From Bilabrum cf. latius (taxonomy: Eukaryota), in NCBI GenBank assembly GCA_965178125.1, contig OZ237772.1, positions 372,001-436,000 of the forward strand: DNA of 64,000 nt, read 5' to 3'. Position 1 is the stretch's first letter, and every line of letters starts with the position of its first letter. A program made the position numbers and the translations under genes. This document shows, piece after piece, positions 1-64,000 of this stretch. Below the pieces are notes generated by a model. The model was not told the DNA's origin, made no database searches, and was given only the letters and a program-made list of their open reading frames with translations.

Positions 1-1425
1 GGTACTGGGACCGACACAATCCCTGCACGGCCCATTGAGCAAGCGCGGCGTCACTCGAGACCAACAGATGCCCACAGAGAGCACGAGGCGAGCATGGAAA
101 ACCATCCCGTAGTGATCGGATCCAGTGCTGACACGTCCAGCTAGTTCGAAACAGATGCAGCAGATGGGCGCATGGATTGGCCGCACGGTCCACGTCAGAC
201 GATGCAGCCCAGTGCAGCTCACGAATCGTATCCATCGACCCGCTAGGAATCGCACCTGCATCTGGGACTGTAGTCGTCGTCACAGTCCAACTCCCGGGTG
301 TCCCTGCCAACAAGGGGTGCTTCTGCTGGAGGCCCGCACTCAGTGCAAGGGGGCGACCTAGGGGCAAGCAGGGAATATCGGTCTAGGGGAGCCTCTTCTC
401 CTACGGGGGTGCATGAGCTGACCGCGGAATCCAGTGTGGATTCAAACGCGGTCAATGAGCTTGCTTTGCGAGCGGACAACGATGCCCAGCCGAGGCCCGA
501 GAGGCAATCAATTGCGGCCTTGTACGACCAGAGTTCAGCTCAGTACGGGGATGAAGATGCGAAGGGACGAACATGCACTCTCTTTGAAGCCCCTCATCTA
601 GCTTGCCTTTCGTGCCAGTGTTGCGTGAGAGATGCACGGGATGCGTCTTGCACTCGAGATGCACCATACCTCTGCAGGCTGCTTCCGTGCCGCAATGCAG
701 TGCAGCAGTCCTGGAGACTCCCTTGGCTCCCTCAAGTGGCACCATCCGCCCCTTACCCCCGCGCTGTCCACGGACTAGGGGCGGTGCTTGCTGTGCTGCA
801 GTGGGATGCACTCGAGGGAACGATGTATGCGTATACCGCGTGGTAGCATGATGCCATGGGAGCGATGGATACTGCCCGGCATCACGAGTTGAGAAGTGCG
901 CTGCTGGCAGCAGAAGTTGGCAACCGCAAGACTACGCTGGTGGGATCAGAGTTTGGCAACCGCAAGACCGCCTCTTTACCTTCTTCCGCTGCTCCATCGA
1001 GGAGCCCATCGGTCCTGTCTATAGAACCTACGGATCCACGTGGCATACACTTGGCATCCCGGTACCAGATCAACCGGCCCACGACGGCATGGGCCGACAC
1101 GAAGAAAAGCATGGATGTGTCACCCAACGCACCCAGCGCCGTGGACCAATCGAGCACAAAGGAGGGTCAAGGCAGTCGGTCTGCTGGGCCAGGGAACAGG
1201 GTAGGTCTGCTGTTCCGTCTGTTCGACGCAACGGCTGTGCTCGCGATCGTCACGTGGGCCGTTCTTTGTTCCCTGGGCCAGTGCCCCGTGGGTGCCTGCA
1301 TGCGTGACCCCGGCAGCGACCTCGCCCAGCTGCCCCCAGTGCTGCTGTTGTGGGATCGCGCGGCGGTGGCGGGGGTGGCGGTGGTGGCAAGTCTAGTTGG
1401 GAGTGTGGCTGTCCTGTACAGCTAA
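1..1425 (+). CDS. Paralog A (3' part only, 5' end outside window) of the unrecognised tandem multi-pass membrane protein family
   Basis: Frame 1 is open from base 1 to TAA 1423-1425 if TAG at 142, 244, 271 and 844 is read as sense. Near-identical to 11950-13407 (paralog C). Ends with the family C-terminal module AVLAIVTWAVLCSLGQCPVGACMRDPGSDLAQLPPVLLLWDRAAV. Confidence 0.75.
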
Positions 1426-4163
1426 ATTGGGAATAAAGGTGGCTGTATTGCTAAGGAAAGGGACGAGTTTGGCATCGGCTGGCTTTGGGTCTACTTGTTA
1501 TGACAAGAGGAACAAGCATGATTGCCAGCCTGGCTGCCAAGAGTGCCCGCAGAGGATGGCACTCGTCACGAACTGTAACCAACCCGTCGGTGGATCAAAA
1601 CAAAGCCTATCTGGAATGGTCTGAGCTTTCTTGCATGTTCTTTCTATCAACGATATTTGTTGTTATTATTGTCCATGCTTCTGGCGAAATAGGAGGTATT
1701 TTCAACAGCATACTGCACAATGCTCCACAGACTGCAGGCCTAGTTGCGAGCAACAGCACGTAGAATCATTTTCGCTGCAACGGTGAGCAACGTCATGCCT
1801 TCCGGCTTGTAGCAATAATTCAATTGTACGTATCTGCTCGCGTTGCGGATAAACTGTTCTTGTATCGCAGCAACTTGGCTAGCAAGTCCAGCAAGTGCAA
1901 GTCTTGGCGCAGGGCCTGGATATTTGCGTGCGCATCGAATCTTGGATTCGTCATTATAGAGACTTCGTAAAATAGCTGGTCAGTAGTCAGCGACGAATCA
2001 CCCGTGGCCAGGCGACCGGAGCAATGGATACCCAACTGGTTGGGCTCGCCTATCGTGGCCTGCGCTACCAGGGCGATCCCCGCCACGCAGACCGTTTCGC
2101 GGATCGTACGCCAATAATTCGTTTGTATCGATGATCGCCGTCCCTGCAGCGTCATCAGATCAACATCAGCGCCTATCGGCCGGACCGGGTCCAACGGAGT
2201 GGCCTGCATTTGCCCCTCCAGTGCGAGCAGCAGAACCGTACACTATCGAGCACTGGGTTCTGGAGACGCAGCCCAAGCACCAAGGGCTATCCCAGTACAC
2301 CAATCAGATGCAGCTGTGGTCTAGATCCAACAACGGAATCAAGTCAGGCACACAGCCAGAGTTTAGCGAGGTGGCTGCAGCGGGCTATCCCGAAACTGTG
2401 CAGCAGTCCTCCCAGCTCATGACGATGCGAAGACTTTCTCCAAGCATGGACGGTACGTGCACTGCTGTCTCGATCGTGGACTGCCCCCGCCGCACGTTTG
2501 ACCCGGACTGCACCCCCATGGACGAGCCCATCCCCCTCAACGACACGTGCCGGCAGACGGTGCTGTGGCCCAAGACGTTCGGACGAAGTAGTAGTAGTAT
2601 GCAGCGCCTTCCAAATAGAAGTACAAATGGGTCATGTCCCGCCCCAATCGTGCCTTTTGAAGGCAACATGGACGGGTACACTGCATTGCCGCCTGGAAGC
2701 AGGGGGGACCCCCGGGGCTGGGTGCATTCCACTGCAACGTGTTCCCCCAGGACCATGGATGGGAGCACTCGCGGAGAACTTGATGCACGCGGTCGAACGG
2801 CCGTGTGGACCCAGTCAGTCACGACAATCTGGCCCCCCGGCACCGTTGCCGTGCTGCCTGTGGGCCCGAATGCAACCGCTTCAGGGGATGTAGCTGACTA
2901 CCCGTGGAGGGTGAATAGAGGGCACGTGGTCACTGTGGTCAGCAATGTACCAGCTACCCACGTTTACACCCCTACTACGTCTGACAAGGCGTCATTTCAT
3001 CATAGCAATTATCATGGTACCACGTCATATGCCCCGATGTAGTGCGGGTCTGAAGTGCCGTACGTGCCAGCTGCACCAGATGCCCAGCTCGTGTTCCTGG
3101 ATGACGCCTCTTGCATCGCCTCCAGGTCGTGCAGGCCAGACGTTGGATCCTCCACCAACGCCAGCAGCCCGCAGTACAGGCAGGCCGTGGACGAGTACGC
3201 GGCATCGGACATCGCTCAGCTGTTCCCAACGAGCATGGTAGGGTGCGCGGTGTCGTATAACCTGAACCGAGAGGATTACAACTCTGACTTGCTTCCAGTA
3301 GACATGCCGATCGCGCAGAATGGGGCCGGGTTTTCCTTTGGGTCCATAGCTCGGAGCTACTTGCCAGGGCAAGTGTATTCCCCAGCACTTGCTGGACGGT
3401 GGAATGCGACTCTGTTCACCCCACGGGCACAAGGTGTCCAGCAAGGAAAAAGCAATTCTAGCAAATCGTTGCTTTATAGAGGAACCATGAGGGAATCGGC
3501 TGTTGATATCGGCTAGACATTAGGTCCTATCATGCCAAATGCTATTCTACACGGACCATACGCCGTGTACCGAGGACCGGTCCCACACCGCATGCTGCCC
3601 CCATCGCCCAATGCCACCCTGCCTCCCATCAGCAGAGGACGGTGGGCATGCGCCCGCACTGCCCCGCAAGGGTACTTCCAGGAGCGCCCCTACTGCCTGG
3701 CTATGTGCGACGATCCAAGCCACATCGCGGTGGATGTGGGTCTCGAGCGGGATGCGGGGCTGGCTGCGGCTGGTATCGGGGCAGGAATGAAGGGTGCATC
3801 ACGAGATGGGTGGGCTCTGGTGGCGAGCCAGGCGCGTCACTGGTACTCATACTGGCTTGGATATCCTGGTCTGGTGCAGGACGAGAGGCTGTACGGGAAC
3901 GATCGGCTGGCGCAGGTGCCTGCTCTGGGGTCTGTGCATCCGGTGGTGAATGGATTGTCTAGCCCTGTGTATCGAAATCTCACTGCGCCAGACGGCAGCT
4001 CAATAGGATTGCCGAGTCCGCAGATGGCATGCATGCCTGACGACGACGATGTGTGGCACCGGTCGTGGTCTCGATCGTCTCGATGGGCACAGCGCTTACC
4101 TGTAGGCAGGGGCTACGTTGAATTCAACCTGAGCTTCGATGCGGCTGCGTGGCCGGCCGCTGT
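1..4163 (+). repeat. Segmental duplication, copy 1 (3' part of A, intergenic region, 5' half of B)
   Basis: Near-identical to ~11950-16150 (offset 11949 at the start, 11987 at the end, with small in-frame indels). The match includes the intergenic spacer and the intron. Confidence 0.9.
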
Positions 4164-6705
4164 GCCTCTCCACGATGGCGCACAGGCTCCAGGTCTGAAC
4201 TGGCCAATACCGTCGACTGTGTAGTTGCAATGGCTCGAAGCAGACGTAGCGATGGATCTAAGCGATTGTGCTAGGAACACCGATGGGTGGGCCGTTCATG
4301 TTTCCGCGGTGCACGTCAAGCCAGCGATGCCGGCTCCCGCAAACTCATCGAGATGCGAGCCAGGACCCAGGAGCAAGGGCTGGTGCCAGATATTGCCGAT
4401 GACACTCGTTGTGGTCGCCTCGCCTGTCGTGTTTCCAAACGACACGCAGCATGGCGCGAGCGCGCCATCCTGGGCCAGTCATGAACCTGTCCACCAGACT
4501 ATGTCTAATTCCGCTCCCATGCAACGGATCCTGACCGCAGGCAGCGTGCTGCAGCGAGTGGTGAGGAGGATCAGGGGAGGACCAGATGCTGGGCTGGCCG
4601 GCGTGTGGATGCTGGCCGCAGAACCTGAATCAGTGCATATTACCGTGCAGTTGCCCTGCATTCCGCTCGCCCGTGACCTGGCAGGCTCTGCGTGTGGGTC
4701 GGTAGATGGGGCTATTTTTCTTCATTTTTTCGATGTTGGTTTGAACCGCGCTGTGGTAGTCTGCTGTACCGTCGCGGTCGCATTGCTGCTGTTTCTATGG
4801 TTTCGGTCTGCATGGCTCGATCATCCAATAAGTGTTGGGTTAATCCGGTTTGTGTTGGGGGCGCTATCGCAAGTGACAGCCTGGATCGCTGGGCTGGGCC
4901 TCTTGTAGGTTGAGCTGTTCGTGCCTGCCGCTGTGCTGCTGGCTTGGCTGACATTCGGGCTCCTTGCTAGGCTAGTAGGAGTACTCGTTAGGGGCGCGGC
5001 GGAGCGTGGTGCTTTGGATGCTAATACAGGACGACTTTCAACAGGGTGCAAGCGTGTAGCTTACGACAGTCCGATGCGGCCCGGCTTAAGGTCACCACAA
5101 GCAGGCGTGAATGAGTCTGATGGTGGTGACTCCGCTCGGCAAGCCTTCAATGGAGTCGAAGCATGCCGTCATTCCAATAATTCAGATTCGAGTATAAGAC
5201 CAGCTACCACTGCACTGCATGCGACCAAGTATTCTTCTGACCTTGGTGGTATCGTAATAGAAGCAGGAGAGGAGCTTGAGGTGGGACACAGCGAAAACGA
5301 TGATGGTGATGATGACACGGGTGAGCTAGCGCGGCGGGGTGACAGCAATGGCATGATGCATGGATCGGTTGCCACCTCAAGAGTAGCTGGTCGGGGGCGC
5401 GCCATCCATGGTCCTTCCGCGGACAGGTCGCAGCTACTACACATGGGAGCCTCGGCACGATCCACACCGGCATAGAGACACATGCGCGAAACGGGGGCAA
5501 TGGCACGGCAGGTCTACGGCGGTGTCCGGGTGCAGCTTGTGCTATCCGACATTCCCAGTGCAACCGAAGACGAGGAAGAGGAAGAGAACGTCAGTGAAGA
5601 CACTGCAGGGAGTTGCGACCAGCATGCATTAGAGCAGGCTCAGCATCCAAGTCAACTTGTTGGCGCGACCTCGGATGATTATGCAAATGACTAGGTCTGC
5701 CCTCCTAGCAGTAGCAATCAAGATGTTTCTCCCGGGGCCAGTTTTACGTCTCTCCCGTGCCCCTCCTCTTCCGTCTCCCGCATGGTCGAGCTACGGGACC
5801 AAGGCAGCAGGGCCCCAAGTGGGGACTAGTACGTCCTCGCCAGGAACGTGAGGCCAGAGGGCCACAATGCGCCCGCACAATGGCATGCCCGCACACGGCC
5901 TGTTGCAACTGAGGTGGACGGCCCCGTGCTTCTGCCAGTGGTCGACGATTGTGAAATAGGTTACGGTGGCTACTACCCCCAGCTCTCACCGGTTTGCTAG
6001 CACATGGCCGTTGCTGCCTCTGTGCTATACTGGGGGGCAGGGCAGGACATAGAGACGGCGATGGAAGAGTTGTCAAGGGAGCGACTAGCTGCAGTAGCTG
6101 CAGTAGGAATCGGTCGTTCTGGAGCATCCATGCCTTAGCTTGTCCCGTTCCTACCGTCTGCGGGAGGGCTAGGGAATGGTATGGATGAATCACAGGCCCT
6201 GCAGTGGAACGGTCTCGCTGTGCCAGGCCAGCCGATTCATGCAAGCACGAAACCGGCGGTCGAAGGGAATTCACGGTAGGTATAGGCACCGGTGCCAAAG
6301 CCCCATAGGTCCTCTGGTTCCTCTGGGTGGAACGTGCGCGCAAGAAGACCCAACTCAGGACAAGAGCAGCTGTCTAGCTCCGATTCAGAACGCGTGCGCA
6401 TGCCATTGGAACAAGGTCCCGCCATCTACACCTGCCGATGCCCCAGTACCACCATGTGCGCGGCGGATGTGCTTGCGATGCTCGCGATCGTCATGTGGGC
6501 CGTTCTTTGTTCCCTGGGCCAGTGCCCCGTGGGTGCCTGCATGCGTGACCCCGGCAGCGACCTCGCCCAGCTGCCCCCGGTGCTGCTGCTGTGGGATCGC
6601 GCGGCGGTGGTCGGGGTGGCGATAGCGTCTTGGGGGCTGGGCCATGTGGCTCGCGCCGTCGTTTGTACTGGATGTGCCGAGTCTTCCAGGCTAGCCTGTA
6701 GTTGA
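1635..6705 (+). CDS. Paralog B, ~1660 aa: signal peptide, Cys-containing ectodomain, ~3 TM, long low-complexity loop, C-terminal 2-TM hairpin; join(1635..1782,1871..6705)
   Basis: ATG 1635 MFFLSTIFVVIIVHASG is signal-peptide-like. Phase-1 intron GTGAGC 1783..CGCAG 1870. ORF-track pieces 2131, 3055, 3532, 4225, 4921, 5482 and 6292 share one frame and are separated only by TAG (~14). First TGA is at 6703-6705. Confidence 0.75.
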
Positions 6706-7897: not shown

Positions 7898-10800
7898 ATG
7901 ATGTATGCTAGTGTCATTATATTATGCATCACTTGTTTTGCTGAGGTAGTTTTAGTCAGCTCGCACAAGCCGGTAACATTAGGGATGGCTCGATCAATGC
8001 CTCAAACTACCAAGTTTTGGTCTGACGCGCCCGGAGATAGCAGTAATCGTTGTAACTGTGAGGAGCAGTTTTCCTTATTAAGCAAATGGTCGCGTGTGTA
8101 ATTATTCATCCTCAGGAGTTAACCTGTGCTCTGTCACTGATGACTTTCCTTGCAGCAACATGGCTGCTTCAAGATGACCTGTCGGCGCTCGGGCTCGCTC
8201 CCAATCACACTACCCGAACCCGTAGGATATTGCAGTACAATGGTACGAAATTATTGAAATACAGGTCAAGCTGCTAGATGGTGGATCACCCATGGCCTGG
8301 CATACCATACTCGGGGGTGCTGCAAGGTTGGCTACCGTTTTATTGGACAGCCAGTCCAAGACGACCGCCTAATCGTGCAAAAAATGTATCCCATAAAGTT
8401 TCATTTGCCGCGATGGCGACAGTACCTGCAGCATCATCGCCCTAGCGACCTGTCATAACGGCAAGATAGAGCACCCAGTGGCCGAGCATCGCTCCTCCGG
8501 TACGGGCGGCTGAGCCGTACACAATAGAGCACTGGGAGCTGTCAACCAGACCACGAGAGCAAGGATTATCATTACTTACAAACCAGATGAGGCTCTGGTC
8601 TAGGAGCAACACTAGCACTCCACCTGGCAAACCTGCCAAGCTAGAGGAGGTTGGAGCTGCTGGTATCACCGGCGATGTGCAGGCCTCCTCTCAATTGATG
8701 ATATTGAGGAGGGGAGGCGCAACAATGAACGGGATATGTGCCTCGGTCTCGATCGTGGACTGCCCCCGCCGCACGTTTGACCCGGACTGCACCCCCATGG
8801 ACGAGCCCATCCCCCTCAACGACACGTGCAGGCAGACGGTGCGGTGGCCCAAGACGTTCGGACGTGGTAGCAGTAGTACGCAGAGCCTTCTAAATAGAAG
8901 TACAAATGGGTCATGTCCCGCCCCAATCGTGCCTTTTGAAGGCAACATGGACGCGTACACTGCATTGCCGCCTGGAAGCAGGGGGGACCCCCGAGGCTGG
9001 GTACATTCCACTGCAACGTGTTCCCCCAGGACCATGGATGGCAGCACGCGCAACGGCTTATCTGCAGTCGCGAGAACGGCCGTGTGGACCCAGTCAGTCA
9101 CGACGATCTGGCCCCCCGGCACTGTAGCCGTGCTGCCAGTTGGCCCGAATACAACCGCTTCAGGTGATGCAGCTGACTACCCGTGGAGGGTAAATAGAGG
9201 ACACGTGGTGATGACAATCACGAACGTTCCTTCCACTGCGATATCTCCGAACGAGACGATCTCGTTGCAACAGAGACCACCAAGCCATTAGAATGGTAGG
9301 GGCTCCGGTCATGGGAAGCACGATGGAACTGCAAGCACGCCTGTGCTTGACGACGTTGACAAGCAGGACCTGCGGACGGTATCTTATGCTGCCATGACGT
9401 GTGGGCTGCCTATTTATTTTGTACCAGCTGCACCAGATGCCCAGCTCGTGTTCTTAGATGACGCCTCCTGCATCGCCTCCAGGTCATGCAGGCCAGACGT
9501 GGGATCCTCCACCAACGCCAGCAGCCCACAGTACAGGCAGGCCGTGGACGAGTACGTGGCATCGGACATCGCTCAGCTGTTTCCCGCGGGCATGGTGGGG
9601 TGTGCATTGTCATACGATCTGAACCGAGAAGATTACAACTCAGACTTGCTCCCAGTAGACATGCCGATCGCACAGAACGGGGCCGGTTTTTCTTTTGGGT
9701 CAGTCATGCACAGCTACTTGCCAAGCAATGGGTACCCGTATACACCTTCGACTAAAGGCCGATGGGCGCTCAACGAAATTTCAGGAACTGCAATGAGCCT
9801 GCCTGGTCTCAAAGCTGAGCCTGTAACTCAAAATAGCAGCCATGGGCCTACGAAGTCAGGGGGGTCCTCGTAGGCATATGTGCAACCATTGTTCCCTCAA
9901 GCAATGATCCACGGCCCATATGCCGTGTATCGAGGACCCGTCCCGCACCGCATGCTGCCCCCATCGCCCAATGCCACTCTGCCTCCCATCAGCAGAGGAC
10001 GATGGGCATGCGCCCGCACTGCCCCGCAAGGGTACTTCCAGGAGCGCCCCTACTGCCTGGCTATGTGCGACGATCCCAGCCACATCGCGGTGGATGTTGG
10101 TCTCGAGCGGGATGCGGAGCTGGCTGCAGCTGGCATTGGGGCAGGGGCAGAGGGTGCATCACGAGATGGGTGGGCTCTGGTGGCGAGCCAGGCGCGTCAC
10201 TGGTACTCGTACTGGCTTGGATATCCTGGTCTGATGCAGGACGAAAGGCTGTACGGGAACGATCGGCTGGCGCAGGTGCCTGCTCTTGGGTCTGTGCATC
10301 CGGTGGTGAATGGATTGTCTAGCCCTGTGTATCGAAATCTCACTGCGCCAGACGGCAGTTCAATTGGATTGCCTAGTCCGCAGATGGCATGCATGCCTGA
10401 CGACGACGATGTGTGGCACCGGTCGTGGTCTCGATCGTCCCGATGGGCACAGCGCTTACCTGTAGGCAGGGGCTACGTTGAATTCAACCTGAGCTTTGAT
10501 GCGGCTGCGTGGCCGGCAGCTGTGCCGCTAAGCACCCGGGGGGCAGCACCAGGTCTGGACTGGCCTATCCCTACGGCGGCCCAGCTGGAGTGGTTAGAGG
10601 ATGATATAGAAATGGATGTGGCTGACATGGTGACGGCAGAGGGTCGGGTGCCTGGCGCATCTTGCGCTGCTAGGATTATCTAGGTCAAGACGGGAGCATC
10701 TATTCCCGTCACTGCGGGTTGCTCACCAGGGGACAAAGAAGAGGGGTTTTGTTAGTCGCTTCCCACAAGTGTATCCGTCCGACTGTTGTGTGACCCCCCT

Positions 10801-19100: not shown

Positions 19101-19175
19101 ATGGTGGCAAACACGCTATGTGCAGCGACAACTGTGGCGTGGTCGCTCGCTGCAAGGGAGATTTTGCTTGTTTGA
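13622..19175 (+). CDS. Paralog D, ~1820 aa; join(13622..13769,13858..19175)
   Basis: Same signal peptide and intron (GTGAGC 13770..TGCAG 13857) as B. ORF pieces 14118, 15042, 15519, 16497, 17592, 18399 and 18672 share one frame and are joined by TAG (~14). Ends TGA 19173-19175 after the family C-terminal TM module. Confidence 0.75.
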
Positions 19176-25960: not shown

Positions 25961-26236
25961 ATGCCTCGAGGCGTGAAAAAGCAGCATCTACCCTCCAAAA
26001 TCTGCGTGGTGTGCAGCCGGCCGTTCACTTGGCGGAAGAAGTGGCAGTCGTGTTGGGAAGAGGTGCAGACTTGCTCAAAGAGATGCCAAGGAGAGAGACG
26101 TAGGATGCGAGCGCAGTCCAGAAAAGAAGCGCGCCCCACAATCGCACTGACGCTAGGATAGGAACTTGCCGTTGCTGTTGATAAAGACCCTGCCAAGGCC
26201 GAAGCAGCAGCAGAGCGGGATCCCGAGCGCTCTTGA
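25961..26236 (+). CDS. DUF2256-like small Cys/Trp (putative zinc-binding) protein, ~91 aa
   Basis: MPRGVKKQHLPSKICVVCSRPFTWRKKWQSCWEEVQTCSKRC is the DUF2256 signature (LP.K.C..C.RPF.WRKKW...WDEV..CS.RC). One TAG at 26159; TGA 26234-26236. Confidence 0.85.
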
Positions 26237-39200: not shown

Positions 39201-40531
39201 CCCTTCTTGCCATCGTGAACGCGGTTACCGAGGTGATCATGTTCCTAGGCAAGATTAGCGTGACTTTGCTATGCGGCTACCTGGCCTACCTGTTCCTTGA
39301 CAACCTGGCGGAGTTCCAGCCCGGGGGCAAGCGAGAGCTGACGGGCATCTGGGTGCCTATCCTAGTGACGATGCTGTTCGCATACGGCGTGTCGAGCGCC
39401 TTCTTCACTGTCTGGGAGGTGGCGATCGACACGGTGCTGGTGTGCTTCACGCTGGATATGGACGAGTCGCTCATGTACCCGAGGAATAAGGGCAAGATGG
39501 GGCGGTACGGCATCCCCCTGCACTACCGCTCCCCCGACATGAGGGGCGGATGCCCGTCCTGCTGCTACCGCTCTCCCCCTTTCTCATGGTGCTGCTTCGA
39601 CCTGAGCTCCTGCTGCTGCGGCCTCTTTGCGTGCTGCGCGGGCTGCTGTGGAGCCGTCCGCGAGCACAGCAAGAAGACTGACGACCACCACAGGGACCCG
39701 ATTCTGGAGGCGCGCACCGCCGCCTATGTGGCCCCTGCCGCCGCCGCTGCCGCCGCTGCAGGTGGAGGCGTCGCGGCGAAGAAGGCAGCTTACGCCAACG
39801 GACAGTCCGGAAATGGTGTGGCTGCGGCTGCGACTGCTGCAGGAGCAGTCGGCGCTCTTGCAGCTGGCGGGGCCGCGGGTGCTTCTGGTGCTGGTTAGCC
39901 CGCGGCATCGCCAGGCGCCGGTGCTGCTGCAGGTGCCACAGGCGCTGGCATCCTGATGGGCGGTGCCGGCGCTGCCTTCGTCTCGAAGTTCGACCAGCAG
40001 TACGTGCACCAGCCGTCCCTGGATTGCCTCCACAAGGTGTATCGCATGACCAGCAGCTTTCCCCACGAGTACCATGCCCTCCAGGAGCTGGAGAGGAGAG
40101 ATGACCTTGACTCGTGGGAGAAGACCAACTTGAAGAGCATCCGGCACGAGATCAATGCCATGATGAGCAGGGACAGGGACAGGCTGAACGACCTGTCAAA
40201 GCGACCCACGGTCACAAGGAAGGCCTACCTGGCGAGGCACGTGATGCTGCAGCGGGGCATGCAGCTCTCCGAGCGAGCCGAGCTCAACCTCGAGCTGGAC
40301 CATCAGGAGGAAGGTAAGTGGCTCATGGTGGTGGAGCAGGCCAGGGTGCAGATCGAGAGGGAGGAGGGCAAGACACTCTTCGGGACCACCAGGGCGGGAC
40401 CCAGGCCTGCGCAGAAAGCCTCGGCTTCCGGAGCGGCGACACCTGGATTCGGGACTGCGAACCCAGTGGCAGGGCAAGCCAGGGAGGTTAGGGTGGGGCA
40501 GATGACGGTGCCGCCCGGTACTGGCCGCTGA
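36256..40531 (+). CDS. Choline transporter-like (CTL/SLC44) protein, ~1293 aa; join(36256..36447,36842..40531)
   Basis: RKMTDMCCCIAF, GNPRRLFYGTDYEGNTC, YHFFGLLWT, RYHLGTISFGSFLIA, AIKGYSFCRSARNVF, VAIDTVLVCF..D. Intron GTGAGT 36448..CGCAG 36841. TAG at 38789 (inside the transporter domain) and 39896; ends TGA. Confidence 0.9.
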
Positions 40532-50700: not shown

Positions 50701-53700
50701 AGAGGAGACCACGTCAGAGCAGCGGTTCCCCTCCTCTGCCACCGGGTACGGTCCCAGCAGCATGAACAAGCAGGGCCAGGGCCAGGGCCAGCACGAGGCC
50801 AGGCGCAGGCCCGTGCTGACCATCCGGTAGTCCCCTTGGGAGGTCAAGACTGAGGACCTGGTGAGTCCTGCGTTCAGGGGGCGAATCCCGCAGGCGCTGG
50901 GGCACCACCATGCAATGCAGTCAGGAGGCACGAGCTCGTCGCAAGAGGGAAGCCGGGGGGGGCGCGCCGGCTCTGCGCCTGGGAATGGTCACCTGCGTGG
51001 CGTGGGGCCGAGCTCAAGCTCAGGCGAGGGCGGTGGCGGTGGATGTGGATATGCTGGGGCACACCATCCAGCGGTGGGCAAAGAAAGGGACTCTAGCTTT
51101 GATGGGGTCCCGTCGTGGACTGTGACGAGTGAGCGGCAGAACAGCGACTTGGACTAGGCGGAGCCGCTGCTAGGGGGGCATTCCAGTGCTCGTGCGGGGC
51201 CCGGGGCAGGCGTGGGCATTCTGGTGGCGGATGCTCGTGTGATGAGTGCGGGGTCAGACCGTGCGGGTGCGCCGCAGGGGCACAGCACAGACAGCAGCGG
51301 CAGCGGGAGCATGAAGGGAGCAGGAGCAGCGGCGCTAAAGGGGATGCCTCCTTCCCACCGGCGTGCAGGCGCCAGTGGCTCTGGGGATACAAGCACTGCA
51401 GGGTCTCTGCAGGGCGGAATTGGGGCCAATGCTGAGAGGAGGAGAAGGGGGTCGGGGACTGGCAGCATCGCTGTGAATGCCGGGAATGGGGCGAGCTAGG
51501 GCAAGCAGCGGGCGGGTTCGAGTTCGAGCGCGGCTGTCGTGCCTGCCGATAGCAGCGCGGCGGGTGCTGGGGTGATCGAAGGGGGCGGGCTGGCGGGCCA
51601 CTCGTCACACCAGTTGCGGGGTGCGGGAAGCTCGTTGGATCGCTCCCACAGCACCGAGAAGCAGCACACGCCGAGCGGGGACTAGACTGGGACGCAGTCG
51701 TCCGAGTCTGGACATGGACTGGGCGACGAGGCGGCGGCGGTGGCAGCTGCAGCCAGGAGTGTGGAAGAGGCAGAGGCAGAAGGAGTCATGCTCGCCAAAC
51801 CAGGGCCCAGCTCGAGTCGTGCCCGTCTGCTGCCGGCCCGTGGCTCGCACCGGTCAACCGGGTCCAGCTGTTCCGCGAACGACCTGGGTTTCTTCTCCGG
51901 TGAGGAGCCCAAGACGCTGGGCAGCGTGACCCGGGGTGGGGGCTATGCCAGCAGCAGCGAGACAGATATGGATGTGAGTGCAATGGCACTCATTGACGTG
52001 CGGCCTGCCATGCAGGAGGGCGGCTCCAAGAAAGGCTCCAAGTCTGCCAGCCCGAGGCACGGGCCCGGGACAGGAAAGTCCCTCCGTAGAACCCCGGGCC
52101 CGTCCTCCGCTGCTTCGGGGGCGTTCAGGGACAATGGCACGAGGCACAGTCCACGGAGAGTGGGGCGAGGGAACAACCAGGGAACAACAGGGAGGATGGC
52201 GCCCATCCATGAGGCGAGCAGCAGCAGGGGCAGCGGGGAGAAGGGCAGTGCCATGGGGGGGGTGTATGTGGCTGTCAATGCAGGGAACAGCAACGCGCAG
52301 CGACTGGCAGACAGCGCAAGTGCCAGCGAGCACACGACTTCGGCTTCTGGGGGGGCGGATCACGGCAGACTGAGCCCAGCCATCGGTGCACGGGCATCGG
52401 CTGGCAAGCGTGAGCAGGACCAGGACATGGGCGATACAGCGTACACGGGTTCGTCCGAGCAGGAGGGGGAGGAGGCCGCCGTGAGTTCTCTGGGGGAACA
52501 CAATGGCAGCAGGGTTGATGAAGGTGTGCTCAGGAAGAGGCTGGAGTCGGCTGGGTCCACCAAGCTTCTCGATATGACTGAGGCTGGAGATGGGAAGGGG
52601 GTGGGGCAGGTGGGGCAGCAGGGTGGAGAGGGGGGGGGAGAAGAGGAGGAGCGGGCCGCGGGGCAGGAAACCTCTGCCAAGTCCGCTTCCAAACCAGGCG
52701 TATCGCGCCCTAGGTGGAATCGGATGGGAGGCAAGGTCACCAGCTATGAAGGCACAGGGGCGGGGAGGGTGCACCAAGGCAAGCATGATGATGAAGATGA
52801 AGATGAAGACGAGGCGCGAGATGACTCGGAGCTGATGCGATCCGATGCGACCAAGCTGGGAGGCAGCATTGGCCAAAGCCAGGGGGCCCACGGGGTGAGG
52901 CAGGCCAGAGCCGAGCCGAAGGACCAGCTGGGATCCGACGTGGACCGAAGCCTGACAGACGATGAGGGTGAAGGGGAGGGAGAGGAGGAGCGGAGGGTCG
53001 TCGGGAGAACAGAGGAGGAGCCCAGGGGGGCTGGGTTCCTTGGTCCTAGATCGAGCGGGGGGATGGAATAGAGCAGGCAGCAATCTATCAGGCCCTCGAT
53101 GCAGCCCCGCGCGTTCGGTGGGATCATCGCGAGGGGCAAGAAACCGTCAGGGAACAAGGGCAGGCAGCACCACGTGGTGCACTCCCACTATGAAGGTCAC
53201 TCACACGGCGAGGGCAATGGCGAAGATGACGAGGAAGGCTATGGGGCGCTGGGTGCAGGGCACGGTACCGCCACCTCACTCACCATGAACGTCAGCAAGG
53301 CGGACACGGCCAGTCTGGTGCCCTACAACGACAACTCCACCATCAGCAGCCTGGCAGACGGAAGCAGCAGGGGGGTGGGGATGGGGGAGAGCGGGTACAC
53401 GGGCGCATCGCGCGGAGGCACACTACCTTCGCCGGATGCTCACGATCACATGCTCGCCCAGGGGAGGGAACATGAGCTGGACATCGCCACGGGGCACGGG
53501 GCGCCCGAGCCAGATTTTGTCCGTCATGATCTAGCTCTTGTTTCTGCGGCAGTGGGTGGGGATCGGGGATCTGTGGGATCTTCCACTATCAATGCACCGG
53601 GCGGGTCCATCGTGATTGAGCCAGCGGGGGGGTACAAGGCCCGGGGCAAGGGCGGTGCTGGAAGGGACCAGCAGCTGAAAGGGGGTATGTATCTCGCTGA

Positions 53701-54046
53701 TGACCGGTCCGGAGCGGCAGGCAGGGGTCAGAAGAAGCAGCAGCAGGGCATGAAAACCACTGCCAGCCGCATGCGACCGCAGGCCTCGTCCAGCTTTGAG
53801 GTGGGGGCCGTGAACTTTGCGGACATGACGGAGGGGCAGCTGCAGGCGCACGTCGAGGCGCAAGGGGCGGTGAAGGAACTCCGATCGGATCTGGCATGTC
53901 TCACGAAGCTGGTGGTTGTGCTCGCGATTCTGCTCGTGCTCGCTCTCGCTGCCGTGTTCGCCGTGCTCGCCCTTGTGGTTGGGCAGGGACGCGAGCTGGA
54001 TCAGGTGCAGAGCGATGTGGGAAGCCTGGCAGCGAGCAGTGGGTGA
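41734..54046 (+). CDS. Voltage-gated K+-type channel with cyclic-nucleotide-binding domain (EAG/HCN/CNG superfamily) and very long low-complexity C-terminus, ~3933 aa; join(41734..42116,42313..42402,42528..43132,43323..54046)
   Basis: S1-S3: WDVLL..FTAIALPYEIAF, DLVFLADM, YLSSWFWIDLISVIPYD. S4: LRMLRLFKLIKLLRVVRASR. Filter TIG-Y-GD is rebuilt across intron 43133..43322. C-linker and CNBD: MFIIQKG...G*IFGEEMIL. The last exon has 13 TAGs and no TAA/TGA over 10.7 kb. The channel core is secure; the full-length tail is less certain. Confidence 0.85.
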
Positions 54047-54192: not shown

Positions 54193-55452
54193 ATGATTGG
54201 GCGGCTCCCAGATAGACTAGACGTACGGCGCATCTAGAAGGCTGAGTAGTCCAGTTGGTCCCGAATAGATGCGCTGGCGTCGTCTTCGTATCAGCAAGAC
54301 GCTGCCGCAGAGGTGCAACGCGCCGTAGCAGCGGATACTGCAGCCCTACACGATTCAACTAGCGTACAACTAGTCGTCAGTGACATGCTTATTGATGCAA
54401 GTGTTCCTAAATCAGCGGAATCGTGTCGGTAGGATGTCATTCGGCAGTGCAGCGTGTCGTTCGAGCGTGCCTGCACAGTCTCCGAATCGCTGCGGTCGCC
54501 TGATGCACTTTTGCGAATCTTACCAGGTGGATCTGGGCACAAACTGCAGCACGTGCATTGGAAAGATGGCACAGATGCGATAGCTGGCGCAGATCAAGGC
54601 CAATTAGCCAAGCTCAAAGCTGCCCATATTCGGGCAGTCGTGTCCACTGTAAGCACTGTTGTATTCTAGCCCTTGCTCCGAAGTGCAATGGCCCTTGGTC
54701 ACAGTTAATGAATTGCTTTACTTGTGTCATCGCAGATTGTCGCACGTGGCCTGGTTGCCCCACCAGAGGCGCCGGACACGCCGCTGCACGGCCCGTCAAG
54801 CGCTGGATTCGCCTGGGCCTCGCTGCGTGAGGCGGCTTTGCTGCAGGGAATCAGCGATGCGCCGCGCGAGCTCCCTGACTCGCTTCATATGTCTCTATTC
54901 CCTGGTTTTGCGCTGGCGTGCTCGTGCCTGCGTCTGGCTACGTCCGTATCTGAGGGCGAGCACGAGGGGCCGCGCGAGCAGGTGCCCAAGGGCGAGCAAG
55001 GCATCGACGGGAGCGAGCAGTGGCAGGGACTGCAGCTACTCGGCGCACTTCCCCCGAGCACGCACCCCTCTCACTCGTCACACGGTACCACGCCGCTGCG
55101 GGGGGGCCTGGCAGCATGTCTCCTGGGGGAGTCCATCCACAGGGCCGGCCGTGGCAAACTGGAGGACGAGCCTATGCCGGGGCGGGGACACGGGCCGATG
55201 CACGATGGGCGCACTGAGGGTGCTGCAGCACTGCTGCGGTCGTGCGGTGCGTGGCTGGGCGTGCTCGGTGCGCTCGTCACACCATCGAGGCAGGAAGTGC
55301 TTGGGCTGGGGCTGGGTGGGCTGTCGATGGCCGTGGACGTTGGCTTGCATGATGCGGGTGCTGACATCCGTGTGGGTGCGGGGTCGGCTTAGCTATCTCT
55401 CCCTCAGACTGGGACTGGGGCAGGCCCATAGATGGAGGGGTTGCGGGCTGTA

Positions 55453-55485
<33 letters not shown>

Positions 55486-58400
55486 CGCGTGCTGTCGCAG
55501 TCAGAAGCAGACGAGGATGCCCCGCTGGAAGATGCAGATCTGTAGGGCAGTGCCTCAGGGAACAACGCATCAGGGAACAGTGTCTCAGGCATGGGCATGT
55601 TGCCCTGGCGGTGTGCGGCTGCGGTTGCAACCGGATGCATGCCGGCCCGTGAGGCAGCGAGGGCCCTCGGCTGGCCCGTGGCTGCGGGTGGATTCGGGGC
55701 AGGTGTGACGAGTGATGAGCAGCAAAAACACGCGGGAGGGGCTGGTTGGTAGCTTGGGTAGTTGGCAGGGTCTGGCCCAAGCCATGGACCAGCGGCCCGC
55801 AGCTAGAGCCGTGCAACCGTGGGTACCGTGGTAGCTGCAGGGGCAGGGGCAGGGGCAGGGGCGGGAGGAGGCCCCACCTCTGGCGCTGGAGGGGATGACG
55901 ATCCGGAGTTAGAAAGGAGGGGAAGCGTGGGCCGGCTCGTGCGTGCGGCTGCTGGCACCCCCTTGGCGCGGTTTGGGAGCAGCGGGTCCGTCTGGAAGGA
56001 GGGAGGTAATAGAGAAGGGGGGATTGGGGGGAGCAGCAGAGTGGCCCCTGGCAGCAGGGGGGGCACCCCGAGCGGCAGCCCTGTCCCCCTCCCCATCATG
56101 GGGACATCTGGTACAGATGGCGAGTATGCTGGTGTGACGAGTGTGCCCAGCGTGCGTACGAGTCTCCGAGCAGCACTCGAGGCCTGCCAGGCCGGGGCAG
56201 AGGGTGGATCTTTAGAGGGGGAGAAGGCACCTGGCACTGAGGGCGGCACCGGCGGCAGCGGTTCAGGTGCCGGCGGCAGCGCCGTGTCAGAGTCGGATGT
56301 GCTGGACAGTGACACCAAAGCGGTGGACACAGCATGTCGGGTCATGCTGGTTGCTTCGTGCCTGGAGCATGCTTCGTTTGCCAGCCTCGCAGATGTGCAA
56401 GTCCAACAAGTCCAACGGGCCGGGAGTCAGGTGGACAAGGGGGGCGGTAGCGGAGCCCAGGGGGAGTTGGATCAGCGATTTTCGCTCGACTGGCGGTGCG
56501 TTGCTTCGTGTGCGGATGCGTTGGTGCACTGCACTGCACTGCGGCTAGAGGCCGGCTGGGAGGAGGGAGCCGCTCGGCTTGCAGAACAGGCGCTTGAGGT
56601 CGTCGGTGACGCGCAAGCTGTCTTGCGTGATGGGAGTGCTGCAGGCGCGGATGGTGGTAGCTGGATGCAGCAGGAGGCGATGGATCGGATCGAGGGCTCC
56701 CTGTCCTAGCTGCGGGGCACGATCGGGATGGGCGAGGAGCTGGGGAGGGCGCTGGCGATGGTGGGGGGAGTGGTGGATGCGAGGACTGGCGGAGTGGTGG
56801 CAGGGGGAGGTGCCATCGTCGGTGGGGCGCCGTTCGTGAGGCAAGACACCGCCGAGACGCTGCAGCCCGGAAGCAAGCAGGGTTATGTGTCCGTTGAGCG
56901 CGTGGACTCGTCATCCACCCCTGTGACCGAGCTAGCCCGCGGCAGCACTGTGTCTTCTGGTGAAGCCAGGGAGGGTAACCAGGGAACACAGGTCCAGGGA
57001 ACACGTGGCCTATACGGCACAGTCGAAGATAATGACGACTCGCAGCCGAGCAGCAAGCGCAGGCGTGTTGGTGGCCCCAATTTGGCCGCGTCCGCCCGAA
57101 TCTCGGTGCCACCCGAAGCAAGCGACGCAGTGGGAGGGTCTCGAGGCAGGGAGGCAGCCTTTGCAGCGGCCCGAGTGCTGGCTGCCTTGAGACCTCGCCC
57201 AGGGGCGGGTGATCCCGCCGCGGTAACTGACGGCTTGCCTGTTTCCGACGTGGGTGGGATTACAACGGGTGCCACAGCAGAGATTGGTATAGGGTCAGCT
57301 TGGTCTGACTGGACTGTGGCAGACGAGATGGAAGTGCTCGTCGCGGCATCGGCCGGGGAACAAAGCAAGCTGGCCAACGTGGCGCTGGGGGCGCTGCAGT
57401 ACGCTGCAGTTGCACTTGCGCGGGACGAGGCCGATGTGCGACAACAAGCCGGCGCCCCCTTGGACGCTAGGGATGCGAGAATGGGCGGTGCTGGATATCC
57501 CAACACTCGGTCTGTGATACAGGGCGCGCTGCTTGACCCTTTGACGAATTCTAGCGGGAGCGGTAGTAGTCAGTCTGCCGGTGCGTACAGCATTTCATTC
57601 GGGCACCTGCGGGATGGTGCTCTGGGCCATGCGATGCGTGGGCTCAGGGAACAAGTGGGCGCCATGCTGGACCAGACGCGGGCGGCCGCGTTGAAGAGGC
57701 GCGCTGCCACTGTGCGGGCCAAGAAGAAGATGAAGATCAGCCAGCAGAGTAAGAGCCAACAGTAGGACGGGGGCATGGGAGGAGGAAGGCAGCAACGGCC
57801 GAAGGACAGCTCGTCTGCCCAGGCTGGGGAACACACGAGCGGGGATGGGTCGGGATCATCTGGTGATGCGGGTGCTCATGAAGCGAGCGGGACCAAAGCG
57901 AGCAGCAGCAGTAGTGGCAGTAGCGGTGCAGATTGCACCTCGTATGGTAGGTCAAGGCGCAACCGCCAGCTGACAACTCGGGCGGCGCAAGCCCGTATGG
58001 CGGTGGGCAGCGAGAGCGAGAGCGAGGGGGATGGGGATGGGGAGGGGGAGGGCTCATCTGGCGGCTCCGAGTTCGGGGGCGGGGGGTAGGGCGGTGGCGA
58101 TGTGGAGGACGACGAGGAGTTCGATGAGGAGGACAGCGACTCGGATGATGAGTATGGCAGTCGCAGGAACAGGGGCAGCAAGCGGGGAGGGGGTGGCAGA
58201 AAGAAGGAGGGCGGCAGGGGCAGGCTGGTGCCTGTCGCTGGCCCCCTAAGTGGGGGCGAGGCAGACCCCCACTTTGCCCTGGGGGCTGGTGGGGGGGGTC
58301 GGGCTCGGCGGGAGGCGCAAGCTGGTCCCGCAGACTGGCTGGGGAGCAGCAGTGCGATGCACGCAGAAGCAGCTACAGGTGTAGGCGTCGAAGACGGCCC

Positions 58401-60378
58401 ACGTCCCAACCGCGACACCTAGCCGGAGCAGGAGGAGGCGGCGCTGATGGACATGGCCGCGAGGGTGCAGCGGGGACTGGAGCTTGCCGTGGAGGAGGCG
58501 GTTGACAGGTAGGGCGGGGCCGCTCGCCTGCTGATGGGGGAGGAGGGGAGGGCGGTGAGGGTGCTGCTGGCGGGGATGGGCGGCGGATCAGACAGAGGGG
58601 AGGAGGAGAAGGTGAAGGTGGTGGGTATGGTGCAGCTGCTAGTGGGAGATATACAGAGGACAGCAGTGCGGCTGCGAGCGTTAGCGGCTCGTTGCGGCGC
58701 TGGCACATCTGAAAGCTCTGGCAAGGGACGTGCCAGGGAACAAGCCGGACCCAGCTGGGGAACAGCTCTCGGTGATATGGCAGCGGTCATGATGGGGCTG
58801 TGCAGAGACGTGTAGCCCGCGTGTGGAGGTGCCAGTGGGGCTGGCGGGCCTTGGTCTGGGACGCAGGGCGGTGGCAAGGCTGGAGGAGATCCGCCTGTAG
58901 AGTCGCTGCATGGCGCTGCAGGGGCTGCTCGTCGTGCCGTGTGGGCGATGCGGCTCCTTGCCGGTGTGACGAGTGCAGCGGGACCGGGCCCTAGTGCCGT
59001 TGTCAAGAGCAGCGATGAAGGCTGGCAGGAGCAGCTGGAGGCATAGAAGAAACCGCCGGGTCCAACTACCCTCACCCTCACCCTCACGTGCGAGCGAGTG
59101 TCCCGGTTAGCCGTTCGCGCCCTTGCGTCCATGTGCTGCCTGTGTCAGGCGGCGCTGAGTATTGCTCCGATCGACGGTGAGGCATCATCGCACGGGCTGC
59201 TGGATGGGTGGGCTGAGATGCTGCAGGCCGGCGCGGCTGCCTGTGGAGTGCATTCCATTGCAGCGCAGGTTGTGTCCCCTGATGACGTGGCGGGTTTGGT
59301 GGGCGTGTCATGTATTGCCACGGGTGCATCGCTGATGCTCGCGGGAGTGGGCGATCAGGAGGTGCCGGGCCTTCAAGTTGGTAGTGCCAGCTCCGGTGCT
59401 GCTGCCTCTGGAGTTGCGATTGCGGGGAGCAGCAGCAGTGGAGCAGCACCCCACCGTAACGGCAGCAGCAGCAGCAGTCAGCACCTCATGGCTCGATGCA
59501 TGGGAGTCGCAGCGGAGAGTCTGGGCGACCGCATCCGCAGTGCACTGCAGGCCAGCGTGACGGGAGGGGCTGCAGCGGGCAAGAGGCCCGGCAAGGGACT
59601 CGGAGCCAGATATGTCCGCCGAGAGCTCGTGCTGTGCGCGGAGCAGTGGAGCGGTCTGGCTCGTGGAGCTGCCGCCGCGCTCGCATGGCTGGGTGATGGT
59701 GAGGATGTGCATGGTGAGGATGTGGATGGTCAGGAGGACGAGGGTGAGGGAGAGGGAGAGGGAGAGGGTGAGGGGGGTGCGGGAGGTAGTAGCAGCGGTG
59801 GGAAGGTGGGCGCAATGACCGGCGATGGTGACCTAGGGAACACAAGATCGGATCAAAGAATTCCCGGGGTGCTTCAGCTGCGTCGGGCGGGTCTGCTTTC
59901 TTTGACCGGGGACTTGGCGGGGGCTTCGCTTGCTGTGGATGCGTGGCTGGTGGCTGCGGCGGGTGCAGCGCATGAAGGTGCAGTTGATATGGACTGGAGC
60001 TCGGGCATGGACTTGTGGTTGCATGTGCGAGGGATCGGGGAGAGGCTGGTGGCTGCGGCGGTGTGGGCAGGGGGGGGGCGTGTCGGCCGGGTACGTGAGG
60101 CGCTGGATCAAGGGGGCGGAGGCAGGGGTGCATCTGTTGGTGAGCTGATCGATGGGCTGATGTGCCCTAGACTGCGGGTGGTGGCGGCAGAGTCGGCTGC
60201 TGACTTGTTCCAGTGCCGGGCCTCGAGTGATTCCAGTGGTGCGGTGGCTGGTGGAGTTGCTGCCGGTGGTGGTGCGGGCGGCGGGGTGGGCGGGGGCACT
60301 GAGTTGACACAGCCTGTGGCAAATGCGCTGCTTCTTGCTGCGGCTGCTGAGGGCTCCGTCACCGCGGGAGACGGGTGA
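54193..60378 (+). CDS. Hypothetical Ala/Gly-rich, probably alpha-helical protein, ~2030 aa; join(54193..54648,54736..60378)
   Basis: ORF pieces 54454, 54724, 55819, 56728, 57775, 58102, 58534 and 59098 share one frame and are separated only by TAG (~16). The single in-frame TAA falls inside a GTAAGC 54649..CGCAG 54735 intron. Ends TGA. No family recognised and the start codon is uncertain. Confidence 0.7.
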
Positions 60379-60575: not shown

Positions 60576-61431
60576 ATGGCTGCAGCATCCAGATCAAGTG
60601 GAACTGTTTTGACAACGGATCAAGTGGAAGCAGTGAGTGGCCTCCCTTCTGTCAAGTTGGCACATTCACCCGAGAAATATTCAATGTGGCATGTCCGTTT
60701 GCTTCGATTAGCCCTTACTTTGATGTCTAGTGGAAATAATCTTGCAACTAAAGATTCTTGATCGGCGCCGAACCACACTCGAGAGACAACGCTGTTACAG
60801 TTTGGCGACGTCTCTCCAAGCCCAACCTTCACAGGCAGCTGAGCGCGCACTCACAGGATTAGCAAAGGGGGGCGAACTGAGGTCCGCGCTGGCCTCGACG
60901 CCGTTCCGATCAGAGGAGCTTGAGGCGCTGGTGGACGACCTGGGCGCGCCTTCCTGCCGCCGCATCATGGTGCTATCATTTGTGCGCTTCTACGGACCCA
61001 CAGCGCTTTCCAAGGCATTCGTCGCGGCAGATGCGGATGGCAATGGAGCGCTGGACGAGGACGAAATCGGCAGCACGCTCGTCGCAGTGATGCGCGAGTC
61101 CGTGGGCGCGCTGAGGAGCGTGCTCCTCACGGCACCGGCGGAATTTGCAGCTCTGTGCGAGGAGGTGGGCCGCGAGACGGAGGACCCTGCGCCCGCGGCT
61201 TTGCAGAACCTGGGCTTCCTGCAGAGGGTGGGGGGTGACCTTCCTGACTTCACCAGGATCAGCCTGCCTGTGCCTCCAAGAAGCGTCACGAGCGCGTTTC
61301 TGAGCGTGTTTGACGCGGATAGCAACAATACGGTCGATGCAGAAGAGTTCGCATGCATGGCATGCGCTTTTTTCTACGCTGCCTTTGCTGTAGCAGTAGA
61401 TGCCGCGCTGGAGAGGTGCGTAGCCTCCTGA
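60576..61431 (+). CDS. EF-hand calcium-binding protein, ~217 aa; join(60576..60632,60835..61431)
   Basis: Two EF loops, DADGNGALDEDE and DADSNNTVDAEE. Candidate intron GTGAGT 60633..CACAG 60834. Ends TGA; no TAG. Confidence 0.7.
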
Positions 61432-62780: not shown

Positions 62781-63877
62781 TCACTCAGGTTCCCCTGAGC
62801 CTCCGGCTCGCTCCTCTTCCTCGTGGGCCGGCACGCCCTCTTGGTCTAGATCTGCCCCACTCCTGGAAGTCCCTGCCAGCCTGAGTGCCCTGCTTGCAGC
62901 TTCCAGTCGCTGCTGCCTGCGATGCATTGCAGCGGCAGCAGAAGGGGACATCGCATCTCCTCCATCCTCATCCCCGTCCCCTTGTCGCTATGCACTGCCT
63001 CCGAGTCTGTCCCCACTGGCAGTAGTACCGCCCCTCCCCTCTCCGCTGTGGATTCGCCTTGCGGGGCCTTCGAACCCCCCCTGTACCGCCCGCCCCGCGG
63101 TACCCGCAGAGGCGCCGCTATCGCCCAATTGAGCCTCGTGCAGTAGTCTAGCGCGCTCCGCGGCTGCCTGTTCCTCCACTGAGAGGGAGCCGTCCCCCGC
63201 GCCTCCCTGGCGAAATCCTCGAAAGTGGGAATCTATGTCAGATGCCTTGAGCGCCCCGATCATGTTGCGCCGCTGCTCGTCCGTCAGCTTTGAGTCGGCT
63301 TGATTTTCGGAATAGTCTAGCGTCATGAAAATAAACACGATGATTCCGACTAGCACAAGAGGAATTCGGAACATGCCTCCATAGTATGGGCCCAACAGCC
63401 ACCACGCAGCCCCGAATGCCCCAAGTACCAACGCGTTCTGCGAGTCAAAACAAGAAAAGGCAAGCTTTGAGTTCTAGCTGAGTGGCAAGCGTCTGTCCCT
63501 TTACCTCTGCGCAGTTGCACTTCGTACTGTGTTTCAGTTGAACAGGCACAGCTCACCAGCACGTTTATCCTGTTCCACAGAAAAGATTGTATAGCCTTCC
63601 AGTGCTGACCAAGATCGGACCACGCTCTGGACAGCTTCCTTTGCTTCTTCGCTTGCTTCTTGGCGGCTCTCGCAGATGCAACCGCTTCAATGCGTTCTTG
63701 CACCAGTGCCTACCTTTGCTCCTGCTCGCTTGGAGCATGCTATACGTTTCCCTCGATTTCAGCCTATCTTTTGGCAGCTTTCTCTTGCTACCTTCTTTTT
63801 CTAAGCTAAGCTAGCTCGCGCTTCAAGTTGCTATCTTTGTTCCGGACCGGCACGCCGTTCACGATTCTGGGAAACAT
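62781..63877 (-). CDS. Hypothetical 2-TM membrane protein with N-terminal coiled coil; complement(join(62781..63437,63557..63877)); may have an upstream exon
   Basis: MFPRIV...ELA*LRKRR*QEKAAKR*AEIEGNV*HAPSEQEQR*ALVQERIE. Intron GTGAGC 63556..CGCAG 63438. Hydrophobic hairpin NALVLGAFGAAWWLL...IPLVLVGIIVFIFM. Six TAGs; ends TGA 62781-62783. Confidence 0.65.
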
Positions 63878-64000
63878 CTGCACCAAACAAGTCACAGCCC
63901 AGAAGTACAATCGCGTACTATATCGTATACTTGCTTAGCTTGCTGAAAATGAGCCTGACAACCATATTGTCAGGGCTTGGTTCTATCCGGATCCCCTTGC

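Follow-up and report, generated by a model that had tools for sequence, protein, structure and literature searches.

In the nuclear genes of Bilabrum cf. latius, UAG is almost certainly a sense codon. The evidence comes from a 64,000-nt stretch of the assembly GCA_965178125.1 (contig OZ237772.1, positions 372,001-436,000 of the forward strand), hereafter the window, which gives good support to a code that treats UAG as sense and has only UAA and UGA for termination. The residue at UAG is polar and of the Gln/Glu kind, with Gln ranking first. We consider it probable that UAG has become an ordinary Gln codon across the nuclear genes of what is probably a bicosoecid, and that UGA (mostly) and UAA terminate them.

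In-frame TAG codons and the remaining stops

The window has a GC content of 61% and is packed with long genes (Table 1). Read with the standard code, its longest open reading frame (ORF) has 793 codons; opening TAG yields ten frames with lengths between 736 and 3,702 codons. The share of the window under ORFs of at least 700 aa rises from 0.103 to 0.781 when TAG is opened, compared with 0.107 for TAA, 0.233 for TGA and 0.795 for TAA and TAG together. Opening TAA besides TAG raises the cover hardly at all; UAA acts as a stop, and a code in which UAA also means Gln (UAR=Gln) does not fit.

In 16 gene models (17,507 codons) we counted 108 in-frame TAG, spread over 15 of the models, and no internal TAA or TGA. 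The models were built free of TAA and TGA, so that this zero is partly circular; the ORF-cover control is not. The visible gene ends were TGA in 12 cases and TAA in 2, and both TAA-ending models are near-identical paralogues, which leaves one independent TAA end. In a near-equal set of 17,017 codons, TAG occurred 105 times, about half of the base-composition expectation and comparable to TAT (92), while TAA and TGA were absent against 78 and 87 expected. The bases on either side of TAG had background composition in this set. Antisense and off-frame readings of the same genes contained 30-45 TAA and 140-327 TGA per frame.

The models counted include such ordinary genes as those of oxoprolinase, a B8/mL43-like protein, a DUF2256 protein, a SETD3-like protein, a TPR-DnaJ protein, a glycosyltransferase, a choline-transporter-like protein (CTL), a cyclic-nucleotide-binding-domain (CNBD) channel and an EF-hand protein. 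Single genes tolerate from 2 to 20 TAG, and TAG is found as near as 18, 19 and 25 codons upstream of a true stop. No model requires a TAG end; the DUF2256 gene could finish at one, and there are few conserved C-termini in 64 kb. The TAG counts, the ORF-cover control and the unchanged contigs described below bear out the initial annotation of this DNA, which had read UAG as sense and UAA and UGA as stops, with none of the latter two inside genes and one of them at each gene end. Its estimate of 110-120 TAG in 15 of 17 models was close, though our recount gave the slightly lower figures above; beyond the recount are a few TAG upstream of the first ATG in two paralogues and a few in a doubtful short frame at ~6.8-7.1 kb.

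Nine public runs were listed, and the stretch was present in eight of them, from four studies; none was recorded as RNA. We aligned four runs (X3, X5, X6 and X8; one per study) to window positions 33850-53800 and scored a TAG as bridged when a contig piece crossed it with no other letter, no gap and at least 31 bases on each side. Bridged unchanged were 24 of the 25 TAG in this region (X3 20, X5 13, X6 10, X8 3); the single exception, at 42736, was one base under the margin. The X3 contigs continue straight through the third intron of the channel gene. The match of X5 record 10 begins exactly at 43323, the first base after this intron, and runs unchanged to 44784; the record has 1,126 letters before 43323, and the spliced model from the ATG has 1,078, which leaves a 48-nt leader. 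Because the match begins at the 3' end of the intron and the preceding length fits the spliced model, we infer that record 10 is a spliced transcript retaining UAG. Contigs of X5 and X6 alike end at 36141-36142, a little upstream of where the glycosyltransferase starts, a place at which an X8 contig continues; the shared ends are a weak hint of a transcript end. Several points weigh against these data. X3 may come from the window's own source (likewise X1-X4), though X5, X6 and X8 belong to separate studies that carry different organism labels; the run labels read 'RNA? (probably DNA)' for X5 and 'RNA?' for X6, so that their status as RNA is one that we infer; the X5 splice joint is not among the matches listed; and X5 also has five changed places, two being T>C, which lie outside the matches listed.

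Three further studies (X5-X8), which carry three different organism labels, contain window-identical sequence, as would fit a co-cultured prey or contaminant flagellate. Those data sets may contain mis-translated genes.

UAG might still be a stop that is removed in RNA, by U-to-C editing to CAG, by A-to-I editing to Trp, or with tiny in-frame introns ending in TAG, which can serve as a splice acceptor; the status of X5 and X6 and the five changed places in X5 leave some room for this. Record 10, however, is gapless and unchanged over TAG 43673 and 43853 and yet starts at an exon start, and X5 and X6 pieces bridge 16 of the 25 TAG unchanged. Homologues align without gaps through 23389, 42673 and 42736, and the Trp that A-to-I editing would give is excluded by the homologue columns, so that removal in RNA is very improbable. 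We give the same very low credence to sequencing errors or a decaying, pseudogene region. Decay could draw on the fast evolution of the tandem gene family at the left of the window (single changes that separate copy 1 from copy 3: 15 non-synonymous, 8 synonymous), but it would have to yield 108 TAG and no TAA or TGA in frameshift-free ORFs of up to 3,900 codons, housekeeping genes among them; moreover, identical TAG recur in the runs of four studies, and 6 of 14 comparable TAG sites are common to paralogues. The TAG codons are thus unlikely to be explained by errors of assembly, by pseudogenes, by mini-introns or by bulk editing.

The amino acid at UAG

Homologue sets were built for three genes (120 oxoprolinases, 19 channels and 148 glycosyltransferases). 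TAG was entered as Q at 3 of 732 places in the query of the glycosyltransferase search, and as X in the column alignment. A column was used when it was filled in at least 50% of homologues, as was the case for 7 of the 18 TAG of the three genes. Homologue alignments pass without gaps through TAG 23389, 42673, 42736, 43853 and 34030. A Codetta-like sum over the seven columns gave Q 0.50, K 0.21, E 0.15 and N 0.06, with Leu outside the top 8. In entropy-matched controls, sets of seven columns were called Q in 94% of true-Q draws, less often when the true residue was E (31%), K (32%), R (21%) or G (19%), and in 0-1% of true L, W or Y draws. Of the 17 homologues in the channel column at 42673, 14 have N or Q. 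At 43853, the 11 closer homologues have mixed small or polar residues (S3, H2, T2, K, A, G, E), and the remaining usable columns are variable and polar. TAG stands at polar surface positions, and the ratio TAG:CAG (105:535) is similar to TTG:CTG (158:581), as would be expected of the minor partner in a synonymous pair.

All five TAG quoted in the initial annotation were found at the positions given there, that of the glycosyltransferase on the minus strand at 34030-34032. The statement that TAG falls in conserved cores was overstated: most lie outside, and none of the seven usable columns is invariant. The CTL TAG at 38789 (residue 668) is outside the best Pfam stretch (702-891), in an insertion-like segment, and the oxoprolinase TAG at 22036 falls in a variable MAFFT column (A43, K18, D13, S12, E11, Q6), which is under the 50% fill cut and was not counted. 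The TPR and SET alignments stop short of the TAG sites. A homologue search with the B8/mL43 exon returned 2 candidates, none of them scored, and PDB alignments of the exon, which are too distant to type its four TAG, have A, P/K, E and V/V-type residues of B8 at these sites. A neighbour-context test of TAG against each residue (four window sizes, uncalibrated) had no stable winner, with Q and E often near the bottom, and was not used.

The tandem family has 14 TAG sites with a comparable paralogue, where TAG is kept at 6 and replaced by Glu at 3, Gln at 3, Leu at 1 and Trp at 1; three of the sites have TAG opposite CAG or CAA. The product of columns and paralogues was Q 0.71, E 0.24 and K 0.04. 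In addition, the 84% identical glycosyltransferase orthologue P0142/P0292, which was excluded from the column set, has Q at 33880. We therefore consider Gln quite likely; it ranks first, as the initial annotation had it, with less certainty than was claimed there.

Some results weigh against Gln. No TAG stands on an invariant Gln column, and the top emission reached at least 0.30 in none of the 7 TAG columns versus 15 of 58 Gln columns. When a single column is left out, Q and K may tie or change places. In the closest paralogue swaps, TAG is exchanged for GAG (twice), TTG and TGG but never for CAG, and the paralogue codon model alone favours Glu (E 0.44, Q 0.39). The oxoprolinase column at 23389 is 60% E, and the orthologue P0142/P0292 has E at 34030. 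Several of these points speak for Glu, which would be read by a tRNA-Glu(CUC) whose anticodon had changed to CUA, UAA and UGA still being stops. TAG faces GAG or GAA at 3 of 8 changed paralogue sites, and at two of the three the surrounding sequence is 95-100% identical; the controls call true-E sets Q at the rate given above; and UAG=Glu has a precedent in peritrichs and Oligohymenophorea sp. PL0344 (PMC10553269, in its accessible part). Against Glu stand the channel column at 42673, which lacks E in all 17 homologues, the Q that the displayed PDB alignments have at 43853, the orthologue's Q at 33880, the three paralogue pairings with Gln codons and the low share of E in the combined product. 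Glu is on balance a rather unlikely residue, and about as unlikely is a bicosoecid stramenopile code in which UAG alone means glutamate and UAA and UGA are stops. If UAG=Glu were true, it would be a code table without earlier report and the first stramenopile nuclear reassignment, possibly common to a sister species.

Still less probable is another polar residue, Lys above all, or an ambiguous UAG that is an amino acid within genes and still a stop for some. Lys has 0.21 from the columns alone and ties with Q in some leave-one-out runs, but it drops to 0.04 once paralogues are added. For ambiguity, the DUF2256 TAG lies downstream of the domain and could be the end of that gene; however, the 13-20 TAG of long genes mean that stop activity within genes must be very low, and TAG also occurs within 18-25 codons of a true stop.

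Four further candidates were rejected. Leu has 0.001 in the combined estimate, and hydrophobic sets are almost never called Q; Trp and Tyr are ruled out by the columns. Pyrrolysine was rejected because it is not known in eukaryotes and because TAG is in use as a common codon.

Lineage, known UAG codes and a possible mechanism

In the trees, the sister of the window oxoprolinase was a clade that comprises Cafeteria roenbergensis (P0022) and two further proteins, with a support of 0.946 in FastTree (104 of 121 rows, 17 vertebrates dropped), 96/96 in IQ-TREE with LG+G4 (27 rows) and 98/96 with C20 PMSF (17 rows). Tree rows were top hits only, and no named ciliate or fornicate was among them. Like Cafeteria, the window has GC-rich genes with few introns. 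The organism is thus probably a bicosoecid stramenopile, whose long branch is sister to that of Cafeteria; it counts against this that the placement comes from a single gene, the end branch of which is long (0.76-1.03). No rRNA was detected in the window by Rfam. The oxoprolinases of the Cafeteria clade are whole records of 1,325-1,471 residues (the search was able to return long proteins only). Because they are full length, they suggest that the standard code is used in that clade and that the change would have occurred on the window's own branch.

A closer relative was seen with the glycosyltransferase. Fragments P0141 and P0291, from contigs of 1.4 and 4.8 kb, are two alleles that are ~82% identical to the window protein. 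Both break off at one residue, opposite a Leu codon of the window; the break would be explained if an in-frame stop had been taken for a stop. P0141, P0142, P0291 and P0292 (82-85% identical) are glycosyltransferase pieces split as if by in-frame stops, and their source is possibly a second species with the same code.

Our comparison with known codes draws on the accessible parts of the papers cited. UAG alone is assigned to Gln in Iotanema, Protocruzia, Hartmannula and Trochilia, and to Leu in the rhizarian exLh and three TARA ciliates (PMC11687900). The nuclear code of the fornicate Iotanema spirale (UAG=Gln, UAA and UGA stop) would be identical to that of the window if the residue here is Gln; a tRNA-Gln(CUA) is predicted there and eRF1 is altered (T32G). 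Iotanema, however, belongs to another supergroup and has UAA as its dominant stop (PMC5304391), in contrast to UGA here (12 of 14). Hartmannula sinica, Trochilia petrani and Protocruzia tuzeti likewise have UAG alone reassigned, with widespread sense use, but UAA is the fixed preferred stop of phyllopharyngean ciliates (PMC11687900), whereas the window has a Cafeteria-like gene, 61% GC and mostly UGA. In exLh and the TARA phyllopharyngean metagenome-assembled genomes, UAG is sense and UAA and UGA are stops as here (PMC5304391, PMC11687900); their Leu is excluded in the window, and exLh has UAA as its dominant stop where the window has UGA.

In the part of PMC10553269 available, UAG=Glu appears only where UAA is sense as well. 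PL0344 (UAG=Glu, UAA=Lys) is the precedent for Glu, the main rival residue, and in peritrichs and Blastocrithidia both UAR codons mean Glu. UAA is a sense codon in all of these, whereas in the window it is never in frame and terminates genes. The Blastocrithidia change is tied to falling GC (PMC12153298); the window's GC is high. Cafeteria roenbergensis/burkhardae (Bicosoecida), the nearest named oxoprolinase source, has a genome of ~70% GC with 1.67-1.89 introns per gene (PMC6972860), compared with 61% GC and a long separate branch for the window. The non-standard code named for Cafeteria in the accessible part of that paper is mitochondrial only (UGA=Trp), and its oxoprolinase, P0022, is recorded at a full length of 1,471 aa; the bicosoecid code reports available concern mitochondrial UGA=Trp (PMC6723347, PMC6972860).

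The UAG-only Gln code is presumably the one that the initial annotation called table 15. Its suggestion of an independent origin gains support from the grouping with Cafeteria (in a comparison without ciliate or fornicate orthologues) and from the full-length proteins of that clade, and its suggestion that the reassignment may be undescribed holds within the open-access literature, where we found no stramenopile nuclear reassignment; subscription papers, theses and supplements were outside this scope. The data support a new, independent instance of the rare UAG-only reassignment in a lineage that is probably Bicosoecida, in which we found none reported.

How the change came about can be outlined from known cases, on which the tRNA and eRF1 parts are modelled (PMC5304391, PMC11687900, as far as accessible). 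A duplicated tRNA-Gln(CUG) may have mutated to anticodon CUA, which would read UAG and not UAA, and eRF1 may have lost most of its UAG recognition. CUA would be one base from tRNA-Gln(CUG), or from tRNA-Glu(CUC). ARAGORN and Rfam detected no tRNA in the window, and eRF1 is not among the genes located there. Given the high GC and UGA as the main stop, an ambiguous suppressor stage would be likelier than AT-driven codon capture, because GC pressure alone would not empty a genome of UAG stops.

Genes of the window and consequences of the code

Table 1. Genes and sites of the window with their in-frame TAG codons
Feature	Position	Strand	Remarks
Tandem family copy 1, 3' part, membrane-type proteins	94..1425	+	4 in-frame TAG; ends TAA
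Tandem family copy 2	1819..6705	+	11 TAG past first ATG (13 in whole frame); ends TGA
Tandem family copy 3	8086..13407	+	16 TAG; ends TAA; no NCBIfam match
Tandem family copy 4	13806..19175	+	12 TAG past first ATG; ends TGA; no Pfam match
5-Oxoprolinase	19927..25020	+	6 TAG; 5' end upstream of inferred intron; tree marker
Oxoprolinase TAG	23389..23391	+	column E72/Q24/D24 of 120 homologues; invariant L-x-[TAG]-E-G-A flanks
Complex I B8 / mL43-like protein, first exon	25518..25754	-	4 TAG in 79 codons
DUF2256 protein	25961..26236	+	1 TAG downstream of domain: sense, stop or splice acceptor
SETD3/LSMT-like methyltransferase	26593..30009	-	6 TAG; ends TGA
TPR + DnaJ protein	30575..33613	+	4 TAG (true start uncertain); ends TGA
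Family 1 glycosyltransferase	33823..36021	-	TAG at 35455, 34030, 33880; 84%-identical orthologue has E, Q at last two
CTL	36875..40531	+	2 TAG; ends TGA
CNBD channel	41734..54046	+	20 TAG; ends TGA
CNBD channel exons	41734-42116, 42313-42402, 42528-43132, 43323-54046	+	three GT-AG introns
Channel TAG, amide column	42673..42675	+	17 homologues: N9/Q5/S/D/T, without E; structures of KCNH1, KCNH5 and HCN1 have N
Channel TAG in CNBD	43853..43855	+	Q in five PDB alignments shown (four SthK variants, 5v4s)
Stretch with no changed letters in X5 record 10	43323..44784	+	keeps TAG 43673 and 43853
1,829-aa low-complexity protein, no family	54889..60378	+	13 TAG; ends TGA
EF-hand protein	60967..61431	+	sole model without TAG; ends TGA
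Last exon, gene of no assigned function	62781..63389	-	1 TAG; ends TGA
Charged coiled-coil exon	63620..63877	-	5 TAG in 86 codons

The tandem family (window 1-19175) has four copies of 1,600-1,800 residues each, with a conserved, Cys-rich N-terminal part of 1,000 residues, hydrophobic stretches and a divergent, low-complexity middle; the proteins are candidate surface proteins. Identity is a mosaic, in which copies 1 and 3 have a common tail and copies 2 and 4 a common head, which suggests gene conversion. A viral scan with copy 4 gave no match. Between copies 2 and 3 (6770-7150) is a short E/Q/A-rich frame with TAG and without ATG, a gene or a remnant. The B8/mL43-like and DUF2256 genes stand head to head (25485-26236), with starts 207 bases apart. 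TAG density is highest in the B8-like exon and the exon at 63620-63877.

The glycosyltransferase contains a tandem duplication of ~21 codons (34300-34430), where all contigs break; a metagenome scan with this protein gave one 27% locus (L001) only, which was not used. A second, diverged copy of the CTL gene (36869-39313) is present in contigs of run X3 (depth ~160) and weakly in X5, and a scan of prokaryote genomes with the CTL protein gave no match. Removal of its three introns leaves the CNBD channel as a single frame, 3,933 codons in length; its cytoplasmic tail (~3,300 residues, of low complexity) and the hydrophobic helix that ends it are all in one 10.7-kb exon. At 62213-62600 is a small intron-containing gene (start near 62225) with no family match, outside the counts.

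Codes that split UAG from UAA are rare, being known from a few ciliates together with a single rhizarian and a single fornicate in the accessible part of a 2024 review (PMC11687900). A stramenopile case would add a major eukaryote group for which the open-access literature gave no nuclear reassignment. A GC-rich, UGA-terminating genome speaks against AT-driven codon capture and would be a test case for the ambiguous-intermediate route. Cafeteria, a close relative, is in culture, has been sequenced and apparently uses the standard code, and the window organism occurs in deep data from several studies, so that tRNA, eRF1 and proteomic comparisons may be possible, unlike for uncultured cases. The sequence data are of 2025, and the sequencing group may know of the code. 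Standard annotation splits such genes: an exact look-up of 10 standard-code window fragments in the protein collection found none of them, and the relative is present as fragments only. The lineage is thereby hidden from protein databases, and viruses of a host in which UAG is sense may use the same code.

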